From a virus (taxonomy: Duplodnaviria; Caudoviricetes): a stretch of 55,003 nt of DNA. Below are positions 5,641 to 47,700 of the stretch, one piece after another (the stretch's first letter is position 1; every line of letters starts with the position of its first letter). Below the pieces are notes generated by a model. That model saw only the letters and a program-made list of their open reading frames with translations. It was not told the DNA's origin and did no database searches. The translations under genes were made by a program, and so were the position numbers. The DNA lies in the IMG/VR virus record IMGVR_UViG_3300030328_002398, positions 1 through 55,003 of that record. One strand, given 5' to 3'.

Positions 5641-6042
5641 TTGCAAGTTTTTAGTTCCCCTGACGATTATTTGTTTAATCTTCACACATGTTCACCTGCT
5701 GAAGCTAAGAAAATATGGAAATTATCCATTAAGGAAGAATTTAATCACAAATGCGCTTATTGTGGATCAAGAGAGAATTTAACTCTCGACCATTTAATAC
5801 CAAGATATTCTGGGGGTACTAACGAGAATACCAATCTCGTGTGTGCCTGTTTTTTATGCAATAGTGATAAATCCCATGAACCTTGGCAAGAATGGTATCG
5901 GAAACAGGATTTCTACGATCCATATAAAGAACAACGCATATTAAAGTGGCAACAACAGAATAAGAAGAAAGAGTATGAGGATAGAGCTGGGGTAATCCTG
6001 ACTCGCAACAACTTCATATACAAAAGATTAAAAAATTCTTAA
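5641..6042 (+). CDS. HNH endonuclease
   Basis: CAYCG, LTLDHLIP, GGTN...NLVCAC..CN..K; TTG start. Confidence 0.88.
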   Translation: MQVFSSPDDYLFNLHTCSPAEAKKIWKLSIKEEFNHKCAYCGSRENLTLDHLIPRYSGGTNENTNLVCACFLCNSDKSHEPWQEWYRKQDFYDPYKEQRILKWQQQNKKKEYEDRAGVILTRNNFIYKRLKNS

Positions 6043-6067
6043 ACTGTATCAAAACGAACACCATTAC

Positions 6068-6096
6068 TTGCATATATAATAAAAGTGTGTTATTAT
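6068..6096 (+). promoter_or_regulatory. Sigma70-type promoter for the riboswitch/DUF4278 transcript
   Basis: TTGCAT-17 nt-TATTAT immediately upstream of the first aptamer. Confidence 0.6.
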
Positions 6097-6104
6097 TAAC
6101 ACAT

Positions 6105-6153
6105 ATCGTTCAACCTGATACATTCAGGTCGCAAGTAAGCCGACTCGGAACGG
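6105..6153 (+). ncRNA. Glutamine riboswitch-like aptamer 1 (glnA / Downstream-peptide family)
   Basis: P1 CGTTC(6107-6111)/GAACG(6148-6152); P2 ACCTGA/TCAGGT; core CGCAAGTAAGCCGAC; lies upstream of a DUF4278 gene. Confidence 0.75.
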
Positions 6154-6154
6154 A

Positions 6155-6339
6155 ATCGTTCATCCCATGTTTCATCTAGCAGTTATTGCAACCGCCTTTA
6201 CTTGTATCGAAGCTCAGACTCTTTTAGATAAGATGGATGAGTTTAAGATAGATGAAGAGACACGAGCTGAGATGATCAGCGTAGTGATAGAAGAAACACC
6301 TCATTGTGAGTGGGACGCAAAAGCCGACTAAAGGAACGG
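6155..6339 (+). ncRNA. Glutamine riboswitch-like aptamer 2 with a ~143-nt ORF-bearing P2 loop
   Basis: CGTTC(6157-6161)/GAACG(6334-6338); TCCCA(6163-6167)/TGGGA(6311-6315); core CGCAAAAGCCGAC mirrors aptamer 1. Confidence 0.65.
6167..6331 (+). CDS. 54-aa protein nested in aptamer 2 (not in ORF track)
   Basis: MFHLAVIATAFTCIEAQTLLDKMDEFKIDEETRAEMISVVIEETPHCEWDAKAD*; hydrophobic N-terminus, two Cys. Confidence 0.65.
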   Translation: MFHLAVIATAFTCIEAQTLLDKMDEFKIDEETRAEMISVVIEETPHCEWDAKAD

Positions 6340-6374
6340 ACTTAAAAAACCCAACTACTTTAGGAGTTAATCCA

Positions 6375-6518
6375 ATGGCAAAAGTCACATACAGAGGTGT
6401 CGAGTATGACACCGCAGAGTACAACAAAAAGGTACTCGATGAAGCAGCTCAATTAAGAAATCACGATCTAATGTATCGTGGTATCAGACACGAACATAAG
6501 TTCGCATCTAAGAGCTAG
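6375..6518 (+). CDS. DUF4278-family small protein
   Basis: RBS AGGAG at 6362; MAKVTYRGVEY...LMYRGIRH with duplicated YRG motif. Confidence 0.85.
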   Translation: MAKVTYRGVEYDTAEYNKKVLDEAAQLRNHDLMYRGIRHEHKFASKS

Positions 6519-6540: not shown

Positions 6541-6566
6541 AAAGAGACCCTAGGGTCTCTTTTTTT
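6541..6566 (+). terminator. Intrinsic terminator
   Basis: AAAGAGACCC-TA-GGGTCTCTTT followed by a T run. Confidence 0.85.
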
Positions 6567-6600
6567 GTGTTATAATATATAAAAAGACTGCTATTCTCAG

Positions 6601-37540: not shown

Positions 37541-37612
37541 GCCTCTATAGCACAGCGGTAGTGCAGGGCTTTTGTAAAGCCAAGGTCGGCGGTTCAAATC
37601 CGTCTGGAGGCA
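37541..37612 (+). tRNA. tRNA-Thr(UGU)
   Basis: Acceptor GCCTCTA/TGGAGGC; D-arm GCAC/GTGC; anticodon loop TT-TGT-AA; T-arm GGCGG-TTCAAAT-CCGTC; no encoded CCA. Confidence 0.93.
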
Positions 37613-37626
37613 TCCTCTTTTGAGGA

Positions 37627-37679
37627 TAGGTGATGTCACCTACATTCTGGACAGGAGTTCGACTCTCCTCACCTCCACC
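37627..37679 (+). ncRNA. ssrA: Permuted tmRNA, acceptor (aminoacylated) piece
   Basis: GGAC + T-arm AGGAG-TTCGACT-CTCCT + CACCTCC-A-CC, complementary to GGGGGTG at 37759 with a G3:U70 pair; 5' boundary approximate. Confidence 0.88.
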
Positions 37680-37681
37680 TT

Positions 37682-37754
37682 TGCTCCTTAGCTCAGTTGG
37701 TAGAGCGGTTGACTGTTAATCAATTTGTCGCTGGTTCGAGCCCAGCAGGAGCAG
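37682..37754 (+). tRNA. tRNA-Asn(GUU), nested between the two tmRNA pieces
   Basis: Acceptor TGCTCCT/AGGAGCA; D-arm GCTC/GAGC; anticodon GTTGA-CT-GTT-AA-TCAAT; T-arm GCTGG-TTCGAGC-CCAGC. Confidence 0.95.
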
Positions 37755-37758
37755 TCAT

Positions 37759-37968
37759 GGGGGTGCCAAGGTTTCGACAGGGTATAAGGAACATGACTGA
37801 AGACCTGCTTGGATAAGCAAACACAGATGCTAAAGACATCGACACCGCTGCGAATAACATCGTAGCATTCTCTCGTGTTCTCACAAGAGAATTCTCCCGC
37901 ACTAGCGAACTCGCTACTGCCTAAGGGGAGATGGGGGTTTAGATCAACCTTCTTAACCAACTGATCCT
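37759..37968 (+). ncRNA. ssrA: Permuted tmRNA, coding piece (tag ANNIVAFSRVLTREFSRTSELATA* at 37850-37924)
   Basis: 5' GGGGGTGCCAAGGTTTCGAC matches the cyanobacterial tmRNA 5' end; tag begins ANNIV.F like cyanobacterial tags; 3' boundary approximate. Confidence 0.9.
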
Positions 37969-37992
37969 TGGGGGTGCAATGCCCCCTCTATT
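37969..37992 (+). terminator. Terminator-like hairpin after tmRNA
   Basis: GGGGGTG-CAA-TGCCCCC followed by a T-rich tail. Confidence 0.65.
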
Positions 37993-38008
37993 ACTATGTT
38001 TTTAGGTA

Positions 38009-39676
38009 ATGAGAGTAGTTGGTATTAGTCCTAGTCATGATGCTTCCGTTTGTGTATTAAACGATGGAGTTATAGAAGGTTTTTATAAAGAAGAGAGATA
38101 TTGGCGTGAGAAGAAAGCGGATAGACCATACCTTTCATTAATTGAAGCAAAGAATAACTTAAAGGGTCCAGTAGATAAGGTAGTAATTGCATCACCAGAT
38201 CCCCCAGATTCATATAGTATAGATGAGATCGCAAGGAGATTATTTGGTTGTGAAGTTCTTGATATGTCTCAGGTGCATCACCTACAACATGCTGCACTTG
38301 GATTTGAGAATAGTAAGTTTGATCAGGCTTTAATATTTGTGTTAGATAGACAGGGATCTCTTATAGGTGATTGTTTAACTGAATCCGAGACTGTTCTTGT
38401 AGGAGAGAGGGATCCATATTCAATTATGGAGATCTATAAAAACTATTGGGCTCCTGTATCTGGTTTTGAACATTCTTTAAAGATTAATAAGGTATTAGAA
38501 GAACTTAATAATAGTGGAACTACTAAACATATTTGTAGAAGTCAGTTTTGTTTAACTAAAGTTTATGAGTCTGCAACTACTTTAATAGGACAACACCCAT
38601 TAGAGAATGGTAAGACTATGGGATTGACTGCTTATGGTAATCCTGACGGATTTCCAGATCTATTTGTTAAGGCATTGGATCCAGACATCCAAATGATTCC
38701 AAACGATTCCTATTTTAATAAGATAGAACCCATAACTCATACACCAGAACCCGTATGTTTTAGGGATTTTACTCATATGATTGTTAAGAATGTCCCTCAA
38801 GATTATTATCAAGTATATGCTGATTATGCAAAGCATGTTCAGAATCAAACTCAAGAGGCAGTATCAGAATGTATTGCATACTATTCTAATAAGACAGGTA
38901 TTAAGAATATAGTGGTGACAGGTGGTTTTGGTATGAATGTAGTTGCAAATTCATATTATGTTCAGACTAATCCAGATCTAAATTTCTTCTTTGAACCACT
39001 TGCAGATGATACTGGTAATAGTATTGGTGGTGCCATGCTTGTATATAAACAAACATCAAAAGATATTAGAAATTATGCTTTATGTGATACCTTCTATCAT
39101 GGAACTCCTACTTCTGCTGGAGATCTAGGACAGGATGTTGATTTATCTGAGGTTGTAGAGTTACTCTTACAGCAGAAGTCTATTGGAGTATTTCAAGGAT
39201 ATGCAGAGGCAGGACAACGTGCATTAGGTAATAGATCTATACTATTTGATGCTACTAATCCAGAGTGCAAGAATATTCTTAATCGTATTAAGAAGAGGGA
39301 ATGGTATCGTCCTTTTGCTGCAATGGTACTTGAAGAAGACGCTGATATATATTTTGATATGTTAGGATCATCTCGTAGTGAGTTTATGACTCAATCATAT
39401 CAGGTTAGGAGTGAATATAGAGAATTACTAAAGGGTATTGTACATGTGGATGGTTCTTGTCGATTACAGACAATAAATAAAGGACATTCATTATATGATT
39501 TCCTTAAGGAATTGAAGAGTAATGACCATATTGGTGTTATTGCCAATACATCATTTAACCTTGCTGGAGAACCACTTGTAGAAACAGTGGATCAGGCTCT
39601 TAAAACACTAAATGAATCAGAGTTGGATTATCTCTGGTTTCCTGAACATTCTAGGATTATTAAAGACAATGTTTGA
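38009..39676 (+). CDS. O-carbamoyltransferase (NodU/CmcH family), copy 2
   Basis: SHDAS, KEER, HHLQHA, GKTMGL, EAGQRALGNRS, KKREWYRPFAA, HVDGSCR, NTSFN. Confidence 0.92.
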   Translation: MRVVGISPSHDASVCVLNDGVIEGFYKEERYWREKKADRPYLSLIEAKNNLKGPVDKVVIASPDPPDSYSIDEIARRLFGCEVLDMSQVHHLQHAALGFENSKFDQALIFVLDRQGSLIGDCLTESETVLVGERDPYSIMEIYKNYWAPVSGFEHSLKINKVLEELNNSGTTKHICRSQFCLTKVYESATTLIGQHPLENGKTMGLTAYGNPDGFPDLFVKALDPDIQMIPNDSYFNKIEPITHTPEPVCFRDFTHMIVKNVPQDYYQVYADYAKHVQNQTQEAVSECIAYYSNKTGIKNIVVTGGFGMNVVANSYYVQTNPDLNFFFEPLADDTGNSIGGAMLVYKQTSKDIRNYALCDTFYHGTPTSAGDLGQDVDLSEVVELLLQQKSIGVFQGYAEAGQRALGNRSILFDATNPECKNILNRIKKREWYRPFAAMVLEEDADIYFDMLGSSRSEFMTQSYQVRSEYRELLKGIVHVDGSCRLQTINKGHSLYDFLKELKSNDHIGVIANTSFNLAGEPLVETVDQALKTLNESELDYLWFPEHSRIIKDNV

Positions 39677-44700: not shown

Positions 44701-47700
44701 GTTTGTGGATCAATTCCACTGGACAAAGACCTTGGATTTGGTGTATCCATGAAGTCGTTCGCTCAGGACGTAAGGAACCTATATCCACAACAGGATAGAG
44801 ATAACTATCTGTCTGATCCAGAACCTTCAATTACTTATTCTAGTGCTGCTGTTGTTGGTGAAGTTGTCACTAATGATAAGAAGAGATCTATTACTCGTGA
44901 AGCATTATCCTACTTCATGCAGGGTCAACAAGTAGGTTTCGCTGTTACTGGTGCTGTGATAACTGGTACTGGTAATACTACTATCACACTTTATACTGAT
45001 GTAGAACATAAACTCAATCAGGTTCAATCTCTTTCTTTAATTAATCCAGGCTCTGGATATAATAATGGATCTGGTATTGCTACAGTATTATATGCTGCAG
45101 ACCTTGAGAATAACCAGTTATCTGGTAAGAACGCTGCTGCAGAGGTTACTGTTTCTGCTGCTGGTACTGTCACTAACGTAGAACTTATTGATGGTGGTTG
45201 TACTTATGGTATAGGAAATACCATGACGATTTCTGCTTTCCCAGCAGGATCTCCTACTACAAATGCAGTAGTTAGAGTTGATTCTATCTTCCAAAATGCA
45301 GGTGATGGACTAACATTATCTGGATTTGAGACTTCAGAACTCAATGGTACATTTAAGATTGTAGATATTCCAACTGCAAGGACTGTTTCTGTTGAGATAG
45401 GAACATCAAGAACTCTAGCGCCTTACTTCGTTGGGAGGGATGACAGGAGACAGGCGACATATACTCTTGCAAACGTAGGTGCTGGTATTACTTGGATTGA
45501 TGTAGATCGTTCATCTGGTATTGCAACTATAAGAACGGATACTAATCATACTCTAGTTTCTGGTAACGTATTTACAATCTGGGGATCGAAGAACCCATTA
45601 TTTGAAGATAGACTATTAGTTGTTGATGATGTTGAGAGTAATATTCCTTTAAGGAGTATTGTATGTAATGTTGGTATTATTACTGCTGGTATTGATACTT
45701 CATACTCAATTAGTGATGCAACTCTATTTGGAACAGGTATTAGTGCAAATGCTAAGACATTAGGTTTAGGTGAGAATAATCTTGCAGGCAGGGCAACATA
45801 CTTCTATGCAGGTATATCAACCTCAATAGATGCACCATTAACATCTACTGATACTTCAATCACACTAACATCCACTGAAGGATTCAAACGTGGTGATTAC
45901 TGCATGATTAATGGTGAGGTTGTCAGATTTGTTAATAGTAACATTAACAAGATCCTTCGTGGTCAGTTTGGTACTCTTGCTTCTACTGCTATTGTAGGAA
46001 CTACTATCAAGAAGATAGATGTTCTACCAATGGAACTACGCAGACCATCTATCCTTCGTGCTTCTGGTCATACATTTGAATACCTTGGATATGGTTCTGG
46101 TAACTATTCAACTTCATTACCACAGAAACAAGATAGAGTTCTATCCGATCAGGAAACACTTGCTGCTCAGAAGAAAGAACTAGACGGTGGTACTGTTGTT
46201 TATACTGGTATGAACGACTCTGGTGACTTCTTCACAGGATATAAGAAGTTATCATCTATTACTGGTGAGGAAGAAGTTCTTGAGGCACCTGTATTCACAT
46301 ATACTGGTGATGATGCAGAGGCAGAATCTACTAAGAGAGTATCTGGTGTATTTGATGAAGTTCTAGTTAGAGAATCACTAACTGTTGAAGGTGGAGATAA
46401 TAACAACAGAACATCACAGTTCTATGGTCCTGTTAATTTCACTGAGAAACTAACAAGTAACTCCAATGAGGGTATTGAGACTATCAATATGTACCTCAGA
46501 GGTGATGCACCACAGGGTAAATTAATAACAGTTGGTATTTCTACTCCTGTTGGAGTTAAGAGATCTGGAGACTTATCATTTGTTGGTATTCCTGATGCTG
46601 GTGGTTACTTAGGACACATATATGCTGAAGGTGAGTGGAGAAGGTTTGGTGTAATATCTCAGGAAAGAGATAGGAACTTCCTTAAGGTAGATCAGATTGG
46701 TATTGGTCAGTCTAATGTTGGTGTATTCAACTTTAAAGATTCACTAGAAGTTAATGGTGTTGTTAAAGTTAAAGACCTATTTGTATCAGGTATTGTTACC
46801 TTTGCATCTAACCAGTCATTCGCTGGTGTGTCTTATGACACCTTAGTTGTTAAGAAGGTAGTTAATCTCTGGGGATATAATACTACTGGTGGTATTTCAC
46901 CACAGGGTATTCCTTGGGAGACATATGGATATTATACTATTGTAGATGAAGGTGGAACATCAAGACTTAATAATGTAGAAGTTGTTGGTACTTATGTATC
47001 CTTCAAACCTTCTGCACACATTAAGAATGAGTCTTCATGGCATTCTACATGGTCAGGTATCAGTACATTTAATGGACAACTTAATGTTGGAGATCTTAGT
47101 TGTGGTGTTGGTTCTATTACTGTTAATAAGTTTGAAGCAAGAACTGCATATGCTGAGACACTTACAGTACCTAAGAATCTATATGCAACTAATGGTATTG
47201 TTACTGACTTCAAGGCAACTGACGCATCCATCACTAGAAATTACAGTGATGTAGGTATTACTACATTGTCCCATGTTGGTACTTCTTATGTAAATGAGAC
47301 CAATATCTACACAGGTATTGCAACTCAGATAAGAATATCTAATCATATTATTTCACCTCAGTTATATGCTCTTGCTGGTGTTGTTACTAACCTGAACTCT
47401 ACCAATATTTGGTCTGCTAACGTATCGGGTGCTGCTGTTACTGCAACTGATTTACACTTTACAGATGACCTTTATGGTCCTGACATGTATGTCAATACTG
47501 GTGTTGTTACTGCTATCAAGTCACAGTACATTGGTGGTCTAGGTAATGCAGGTTCAGGACAACCTGAAATAAGTGTCAATCTTAACTCTGGTATTGTTAC
47601 CTCTCTGACTGGTTACGCCATGACGATGGAGAGGATCAACATGAAGACTGGTGGAGACGGTGTTTGTTCTCCTAAGATCTACGCTGACGTTGGTATTGTT

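Follow-up and report, generated by a model that had tools for sequence, protein, structure and literature searches.

A candidate glutamine-sensing leader of cyanophages with two riboswitch-type cores, one of them with its hairpin expanded around a conserved small gene

The DNA studied here, which we call the window (the whole stretch of 55,003 nucleotides (nt), positions 1 to 55,003 of virus record IMGVR_UViG_3300030328_002398, Caudoviricetes), is a 55-kb virus-record fragment bearing marks of a T4-like cyanomyovirus, namely a PhotoRC-II RNA and a permuted transfer-messenger RNA (tmRNA) of cyanobacterial type. Between positions 6105 and 6518 it carries a leader with two RNA cores of the glutamine-riboswitch type, the second of which encloses a complete open reading frame (ORF), followed by a small DUF4278 gene; the full order of the unit is a probable promoter, the two sensor cores with the nested ORF, the DUF4278 gene and an intrinsic terminator (Table 1). 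The original prediction, made from the letters of the window, had described two copies of a conserved motif lying 4 nt apart, and on direct reading of the sequence every element that it described is in its place.

It had also assigned these copies to the glutamine riboswitches and the gene behind them to DUF4278, and family comparisons agree with this. With cmscan, core 1 obtains 34.2 bits against Glutamine (RF01739; cut-off 35, expectation value (E) 1.3e-5) and 29.1 bits against Glutamine-II (RF01704), below the cut-off of 33 (relatives obtain 22.7-29.4 bits), and the identical core 1 of cyanophage P-SSM2 reaches 35.1 bits for RF01739. The hairpin directly 3' of its CGUUCA has a stem of 6 base pairs, and the P1 strands CGUUC and GAACG are present in both copies of the window. 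The downstream ORF scores 24.4 bits against PF14105 (gathering cut-off 25.3, E 3.7e-5), its homologue in S-SSM5 is annotated DUF4278 in RefSeq, and all 81 unique tails from related loci lead to an ORF of 38-62 amino acids with a YRG motif (79 have two motifs); we infer that this is the gene regulated by the unit.

The second core is split. The nested ORF starts at the A of UCCCA, the 5' arm of the hairpin stem, and stops at a UAA (6329-6331) inside the core; the 3' half of the core overlaps the last seven codons, stop included, and the product ends in ...CEWDAKAD. Judging from the sequences compared, this layout is shared by many related phages. The region's DNA matches 141 cyanophage records. 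We compared five named cyanophages and the single-cell virus contig Marine virus AG-341-P01: S-SSM4, S-SSM7, S-SSM5 and P-SSM2 have the same split core 2 around an ORF of 49-54 codons, and AG-341-P01 has ORFs in both cores. A scan of IMG/VR, anchored on the junction between the end of core 1 and the start of core 2 and not touching the stem, gave at least 120 loci; the matches listed, together with the six named loci and the window, yielded 98 second aptamers, 93 of them unique. Among these 93, from the matches listed, 63 are long (insert of 138-195 nt) and 30 short (hairpin of 11-27 nt). In every long form an AUG among the first 11 nt of the 5' arm opens a reading frame of 49-69 codons, and in 59 of the 63 the nested stop is the URA of the core sequence GAC-URA-AGG. 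Other searches say less about distribution: a tblastn search of named phages with the single 54-residue protein returned three records and is too insensitive for prevalence, and a pattern scan of genome contigs, which is uninformative on hosts, gave no real tandem unit among 120 matches listed (three regular-expression hits were spurious).

Table 1. Elements of the unit and their positions in the window
Feature	Position	Strand	Basis or remark
NtcA-type box, imperfect (GTA-N8-AAC)	6046-6059	+	upstream of promoter; putative function
Probable promoter: -35 TTGCAT 6068-6073, 17-nt spacer, -10 TATTAT 6091-6096	6068-6096	+	by position from relatives
Sensor core 1	6105-6156	+	RF01739 and RF01704 (scores in text); own covariance model R1, 27.2 bits
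Core 1 CGUUCA	6107-6112	+	CGUUC strand 6107-6111
Core 1 hairpin, 17 nt	6113-6129	+	read from sequence
Core 1 CGCAAGUAAG and following bases	6130-6146	+	read from sequence
Core 1 GGAACG	6147-6152	+	GAACG strand 6148-6152
Linker GAAU, 4 nt, between the cores	6153-6156	+	read from sequence
Core 2, 5' half: CGUUCA 6157-6162 and stem arm UCCCA 6163-6167	6157-6167	+	nested start codon begins at A6167
Nested ORF, 54 codons, small helical protein, phrog_504	6167-6331	+	ORF translation, family match E 2.6e-11, dN/dS, predicted structure
Core 2 insert, 143 nt between the stem arms	6168-6310	+	read from sequence
Core 2, 3' half: UGGGA 6311-6315, then CGCAAAAGCCGAC, UAA, AG, GAACG 6334-6338	6311-6339	+	own covariance model (score in text); stem counts
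Core 2 CGCAAAAGCCGACUAAAGGAACGG	6316-6339	+	read from sequence
Helix masking the ribosome-binding site: CUAAAG 6328-6333 with CUUUAG 6358-6363	6328-6363	+	covariation counts
Downstream gene, 47-residue DUF4278 / IF17-like protein	6375-6518	+	PF14105 (score in text); phrog_5049 E 3.7e-23
Intrinsic terminator	6541-6572	+	9-pair stem, 4-nt loop (6541-6562), T run; closes the unit

With the two stem arms on either side of the nested ORF anchored on the hairpin ends, the 63 long forms and five positions make 315 cells, and 311 of these are paired (63, 63, 63, 63 and 59 of 63 at positions 1 to 5). Shuffling the 3' arms among sequences left 265 +/- 4.9 cells paired (maximum 283), so that none of 2000 shuffles reached the observed count, and sliding the partner by 1-3 positions left 91-192. 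Double changes occur at positions 1, 3, 4 and 5: U-A to C-G (1 sequence), C-G to U-A (8), C-G to A-U or U-A (8 and 7) and A-U to U-A or C-G (10 and 2). In a MAFFT alignment (A3) of P1 and the five stem pairs (620 cells), 97.3% of cells are paired and 16 are double changes, against 3.9 +/- 1.7 in shuffles, none of 500 of which came as high; the five P1 pairs, invariant in all 63 long forms, bring no information for or against pairing. Since positions 1-4 of the 5' arm precede the AUG, their covariation with C-terminal codons cannot be an effect of the protein. The short forms, for their part, have 149 of 150 hairpin cells paired over the five positions, and the two halves of core 2 match them base for base. 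These comparisons confirm that the core 2 hairpin closes around a complete conserved ORF and that its stem has been kept by compensatory changes, as the predicted conservation of the TCCCA/TGGGA pairing demanded. The split layout goes beyond chance because it recurs in 63 of the 93 second aptamers, found with an anchor independent of the stem, and because the stem covaries.

The ORF that the stem encloses is conserved in its own right. We aligned 59 nested ORFs (excluding the four that stop elsewhere) and found that they share a hydrophobic N-terminus, a cysteine, a helix-turn-helix and another cysteine; insertions and deletions are of whole codons, and 54 sequences have C13 and C47 without exception. 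The ratio of nonsynonymous to synonymous substitutions (dN/dS; Nei-Gojobori, restricted to the 59 interior columns of 79) comes to 0.24 when the window is set against its nearest relative (dN 0.12, dS 0.50), with a median of 0.56 over the 434 of 1711 pairs that have dS 0.05-1.5; it is below 1 in 88% of these and in 22 of 28 disjoint pairs. By these substitution counts the nested ORF is a real coding sequence under moderate purifying selection. Its family, phrog_504, has no known function: it comprises 105 protein clusters in metagenomes, none informatively named, and in S-SSM7 and S-SSM5 the ORF is annotated as a hypothetical protein, 'T4-LIKE GC 430'. An AlphaFold model has three short helices (predicted local distance difference test score 77.9) and no match in the PDB at E <= 0.001, and a search of the ESM Atlas returned viral 'hypothetical protein' clusters only. 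A profile search of complete phage genomes found one strong copy in each of four genomes, always nested, and none in P-TIM68; a second, weak match in S-SSM4 was discarded, as it lies inside another gene. The same profile did not find the family in 401 genomes sampled from the phylum to which an 'uncultured cyanobacterium' genome belongs, where there were two marginal matches (E about 0.009, in frames of 200-348 amino acids).

Initiation signals for the nested ORF differ between two types of locus, type A (the lineages with the short core-2 type) and type B (the type of the window). In type A, 34 of 35 long forms have a GGAG 10-11 nt ahead of the nested AUG, as against none of 6 short ones (Fisher p 1.6e-6); in type B the corresponding figures are 1 of 28 and 0 of 24. 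Some metagenome gene calls (proteins P0101-P0105) fuse the nested ORF to the DUF4278 ORF, with the UGA of the core read as tryptophan (...DAxAD-W-RNG...M-AQVTYRG); the contigs of these calls have both ORFs in one frame, which is not so in the window, and the fusions are probably an artefact of the genetic code chosen by the gene caller.

A further helix, CURAAG:CUUYAG, reaches from the second core to the ribosome-binding site of the DUF4278 gene; its 3' strand overlaps the AGGAG at 6362-6366, and its 5' strand holds the nested stop codon and abuts GAACG. Of the 81 unique tails 75 were aligned, six with an extra hairpin being dropped (L005, L019, L035, L085, L096, L114). Over the 444 cells of this helix 88.1% are paired, against 35-68% with slid partners, and there are 24 double-change cells (18 from A-U to G-C and 6 from U-A to C-G) compared with 1.9 +/- 1.1 in shuffles (0 of 500). 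In one sub-lineage (L021, L025, L032, L041, L052, L056, L062, L077, L095) core 2 ends in GGAACGC, and a CUCUUU right after the core pairs with AAGGAG in place of the CURAAG helix, a second type of expression platform.

The expansion of a sensor hairpin around a gene is found in core 1 as well. Of the 93 loci, 72 allowed the 5' half of core 1 to be resolved (nine have no stem by the criterion used, L006 included, and twelve have a CGGAAG-type core outside the pattern), and in at least 11 loci (11 of the 72 resolved) its hairpin is 190-223 nt long and holds an ORF of 61-68 codons, which has its start codon in the 5' arm and its stop either in the 3' arm or at the UAA of CGCAAGUAAG. These ORFs form family phrog_6471, homologous to the family nested in core 2 (hhalign probability 95.8%, E 7e-9, cysteine aligned with cysteine). 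As homologous ORFs are nested in both cores, the arrangement of aptamer and ORF has presumably propagated as a unit. In Marine virus AG-341-P01 the DUF4278 gene is followed directly by a manA RNA (RF01745, 164 bits, L006 1273-1472).

The original prediction called the two aptamers tandem. Two cores are indeed present, but this description now appears too simple. When the search pattern allowed linkers of up to about 20 nt, the distance from the GAACG of core 1 to the CGUUC of core 2 at 119 unique sites was 3 nt (70 sites), 4 (43), 5 (4) or 6 (2), and never less than 3 or more than 6, a length that fits a small GAACG-loop-CGUUC hairpin. AAGUA occurs in core 1 only and RAAG-GAACG in core 2 only, elements that we take to be those of the glutamine-I E-loop. 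When the core segments were examined for cross-pairing (AGCCGACU for cores 1 and 2), AGUCG of core 1 was complementary to CGACU of core 2 in 56 units, with a compensated GUCA/UGAC in three and a G-U variant in one; the window's type, in 33 units, is an 8-nt quasi-palindrome with two C-A mismatches. A fold in which the 5' strand of core 1 pairs with the 3' strand of core 2 (outer helix) and GAACG with CGUUC (inner hairpin) has a lower energy than the tandem fold in all of 72 loci, by a median of -2.8 kcal/mol with the hairpins enforced; for the window and S-SSM4, though not for L037, it is also the minimum when the segment is folded alone and without constraints. Covariation is silent on this choice, because the helix strands never vary; on linker length, complementary segments and folding energies the two cores are probably interlocked rather than simply tandem.

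As regards the setting, a carbamoyltransferase gene and an HNH endonuclease gene precede the unit, the latter (PF14279 / PF01844, 5641-6042) lying directly upstream of the riboswitch promoter; the upstream neighbour of the unit is different in every phage compared. The window's probable promoter was not picked up by a simple consensus scan, and relatives have TTGACT-N17-TATAAT at its position; the transcript would probably start at about 6103-6105. Of the 69 loci whose upstream sequence is complete, 36 have a perfect GTA-N8-TAC 53-62 nt ahead of the first CGUUCA; in random 110-nt windows the motif occurs anywhere in 168 of 3600 (4.7%). This NtcA-type box lies just upstream of the -35 element, with its centre near -51 (canonically -41.5), and suggests nitrogen control of transcription as well. 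Contigs of four marine RNA libraries span about 6116-6490. Some of them run across the long form, such as those at 6140-6325 (4 differences) and at 6130-6347, and others from the same libraries skip 145-156 nt at 6154-6313, where they have 8-9 different letters, and correspond to short-hairpin relatives. These contigs are a weak indication that both forms are expressed; DNA carry-over is possible, and the missing cover at 5900-6088 proves nothing. Elsewhere in the window are the PhotoRC-II RNA (RF01717, 12-111, 50.1 bits, cut-off 39) and, within 37541-38015, the two-piece permuted tmRNA (RF01851, 113 bits), with a transfer RNA tRNA-Thr(TGT) (37541-37612) overlapping the 5' end of the latter and a complete tRNA-Asn(GTT) (37681-37756) within its intervening segment.

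Glutamine-I and glutamine-II are both described as ON switches, for which it is proposed that the ligand, by stabilising the CGUUC:GAACG helix, exposes the ribosome-binding site (PMC6212724 and PMC6698751). With glutamine-I (RF01739), as presented there for the Synechocystis gifB/IF17 leader (PMC6212724), the phage cores share the CGUUC/GAACG helix, a variable hairpin that follows CGUUCA directly, the AAGUA junction (core 1) and AAGGAACG (core 2), and a DUF4278 gene downstream, proposed in that system to be switched on by melting of a helix that blocks its ribosome-binding site. They differ from it in that each core has only part of the junction consensus and no clear P3 hairpin, that the cores are joined by 3-6 nt and apparently interlocked, that a hairpin encloses a protein-coding gene and that the window scores just below the cut-off. 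The full consensus, AAGUA...P3...GAAG before GAACG, is found in no single copy and only in the two cores taken as one composite; P3 appears in the cmscan alignments as a deletion or a local end. The resemblance to glutamine-II (the Downstream-peptide motif, RF01704; PMC6698751) lies in the CGCA after the first hairpin, the marine picocyanobacterial hosts, the short DUF4278 'downstream peptides', the ON behaviour and the position of GGAACGG between the strands of a flanking helix, comparable to CURAAG:CUUYAG in the phages. In the phages, however, this helix closes at least 24 nt beyond GGAACGG and overlaps the ribosome-binding site, there are two cores with a nested ORF, and the score falls short of the family cut-off. 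Tandem glnA RNAs are noted in PMC2864571. A gene inside an aptamer is not described in the available text, supplements aside (these might mention long inserts), of PMC2864571, PMC6212724, PMC6698751, PMC12379486, PMC9964418 and PMC9004378. A literature search for riboswitches with nested or embedded ORFs returned no papers.

More general parallels may be drawn. The glycine riboswitch is a tandem riboswitch arrangement, and here too two ligand-sensing cores lie in one leader, but the fixed linker of the phages, the complementary segments and the favoured interlocked fold make independent units unlikely. In translational attenuation by leader ORFs, translation of an upstream ORF remodels the messenger RNA (mRNA) structure that controls a downstream start; the phage 'leader ORF' differs in being a conserved protein family of 50-68 amino acids, and the structure that it interrupts in being a metabolite sensor. 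ORFs in the loops of introns illustrate that a structured RNA can tolerate a gene in a peripheral loop.

We propose, with a probability of roughly one half, that this cyanophage leader consists of two glutamine-riboswitch cores before an IF17-like gene, that one of the hairpins has expanded around a conserved gene and that the whole acts as a translation-gated nitrogen switch. Glutamine would stabilise the CGUUC:GAACG helices and the core, by analogy with the characterised glutamine-I and glutamine-II ON switches; CURAAG and GAACG would be withdrawn from the masking helix, and the ribosome-binding site of the DUF4278 gene would be free for translation. Since the AUG lies within the stem, folding of core 2 and translation of the nested ORF should be mutually exclusive, a physical argument that the original prediction had made and that stands. 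The sensor could thus close only on an mRNA whose nested ORF is free of ribosomes, and closure would bury the nested AUG in the stem. High glutamine would favour the DUF4278 protein and disfavour the nested one, active translation of the nested ORF would disable sensing, and the switch would set the ratio of the two small phage proteins. Such reciprocal, translation-gated control is plausible from the arrangement of the elements.

Several observations weigh against this proposal. Neither copy of the window reaches the Rfam gathering score, and cmscan with Rfam did not report core 2 of the window as a unit. Our own model, built from 30 natural short-hairpin second aptamers, found only its 3' half (6298-6341, 25.7 bits, E 3e-5), and with filters off it still did not span the 143-nt insert and joined the true 3' half to a spurious local 5' part (a third match of this model, at 45506-45540, we took as chance, since it has no core and lies in coding-looking sequence). 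The whole of core 2 goes undetected because of a limit on hit length; and the natural loop-deleted equivalent, the short second aptamer of P-TIM68 with its 12-nt hairpin, obtains 35.4 bits for RF01739, above the cut-off of 35. The minimum-energy fold of 6100-6400 contains neither the long-range stem nor the aptamer, and RNAalifold predicted no consensus structure on the tails. The covariation counts come from related sequences, with 13 arm combinations and a modest number of independent changes; four of the 63 long forms stop elsewhere (in L010 and L105 the 3' arm supplies a UAG, in L076 the stop comes 15 nt earlier, and L090 reads through by 52 nt). Selection on the nested ORF is moderate, with dN/dS above 1 in 6 of the 28 disjoint pairs, and differences by codon position (9337 / 6028 / 9864) are weakly coding-like; as in 27 of 28 long type-B forms, no GGAG precedes the window's nested AUG, and the window's ORF therefore has no Shine-Dalgarno sequence. 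The masking helix could be a constitutive P2 of the glutamine-II type rather than an OFF-state helix, and the nested stop within it argues for coupling, that is co-expression, and not for reciprocity.

The last of the structural points leads to a different view of the same elements, in which core 1 and the GAACG-loop-CGUUC hairpin gate nested initiation, terminating ribosomes open the DUF4278 site, both proteins are produced together, and a closed core 2 matters only on untranslated mRNAs. A ribosome terminating on the nested ORF could then switch the downstream gene on rather than off. This agrees with the 59 of 63 long forms whose nested stop lies in the masking helix, on its 5' strand, with the GAACG-(3-6 nt)-CGUUC hairpin 6-20 nt before the nested AUG at all 119 sites and, in type A, with the GGAG of the nested ORF within that hairpin. 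We nevertheless think it unlikely: the nested AUG is paired in a conserved stem, the distance of about 43 nt from the nested stop to the DUF4278 AUG is long for re-initiation, and the helix with its URA is kept in the 30 short forms, which have no nested ORF, and is therefore not there for coupling. Alternatively, the gene might be a passenger that uses an insertion-tolerant hairpin loop as a parking place in a compact genome, as homing-endonuclease ORFs do in intron loops; the riboswitch would go on working whenever it folds, and the overlap would have no regulatory meaning. In favour of this, compact genomes are the rule among phages, the ORF is absent from many second aptamers (the 30 short forms among 93; that of P-TIM68 passes Rfam), and long and short forms occur in the same marine RNA libraries. 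Yet in 59 of 63 forms the ORF fills the loop exactly, beginning in the stem and ending in the core, the other aptamer has a homologous ORF at the same position, the family is never found outside the aptamer in four complete phage genomes, and the stem has compensatory changes across the ORF, all of which make a mere passenger unlikely to us.

It is much harder still to believe that core 2 is a relic destroyed by the insertion, with only core 1 and the masking helix at work and the flanking halves kept for coding or promoter-proximal reasons. It is true that neither cmscan nor our own model detects a whole second aptamer in the long forms, but the limit on hit length explains this failure, the halves equal short, functional-looking forms base for base, and non-coding positions 1-4 of the 5' arm covary with C-terminal codons. 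Going beyond the translation-gated switch in the other direction, one may tentatively suppose, although we find it rather doubtful, that the gene is an integral, selected part of an interlocked double riboswitch, in which glutamine and ribosome traffic would toggle between a protein with a cysteine pair (low glutamine) and the IF17-like protein (high glutamine). The unit of aptamer and ORF would then be a duplicating module, a suggestion made because homologous ORFs occur in either core.

The usual view of a riboswitch aptamer, shared by routine scans, is of a compact unit that codes for nothing; here the sensor hairpin spans a whole gene, and standard covariance-model scans therefore miss such aptamers. 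If the coupling between sensing and translation is real, it would be a natural case of ribosome occupancy and a metabolite acting on one fold; such regulatory logic would be new and could serve as an idea for designing synthetic switches. Both small-protein families are abundant in marine viromes, and the uncharacterised phrog_504/6471 and IF17-like DUF4278 families would be linked to nitrogen sensing in infections of the phototrophs that dominate the ocean. Should the interlocked toggle be true, cyanophages would retune host nitrogen assimilation to the nitrogen state of the cell.

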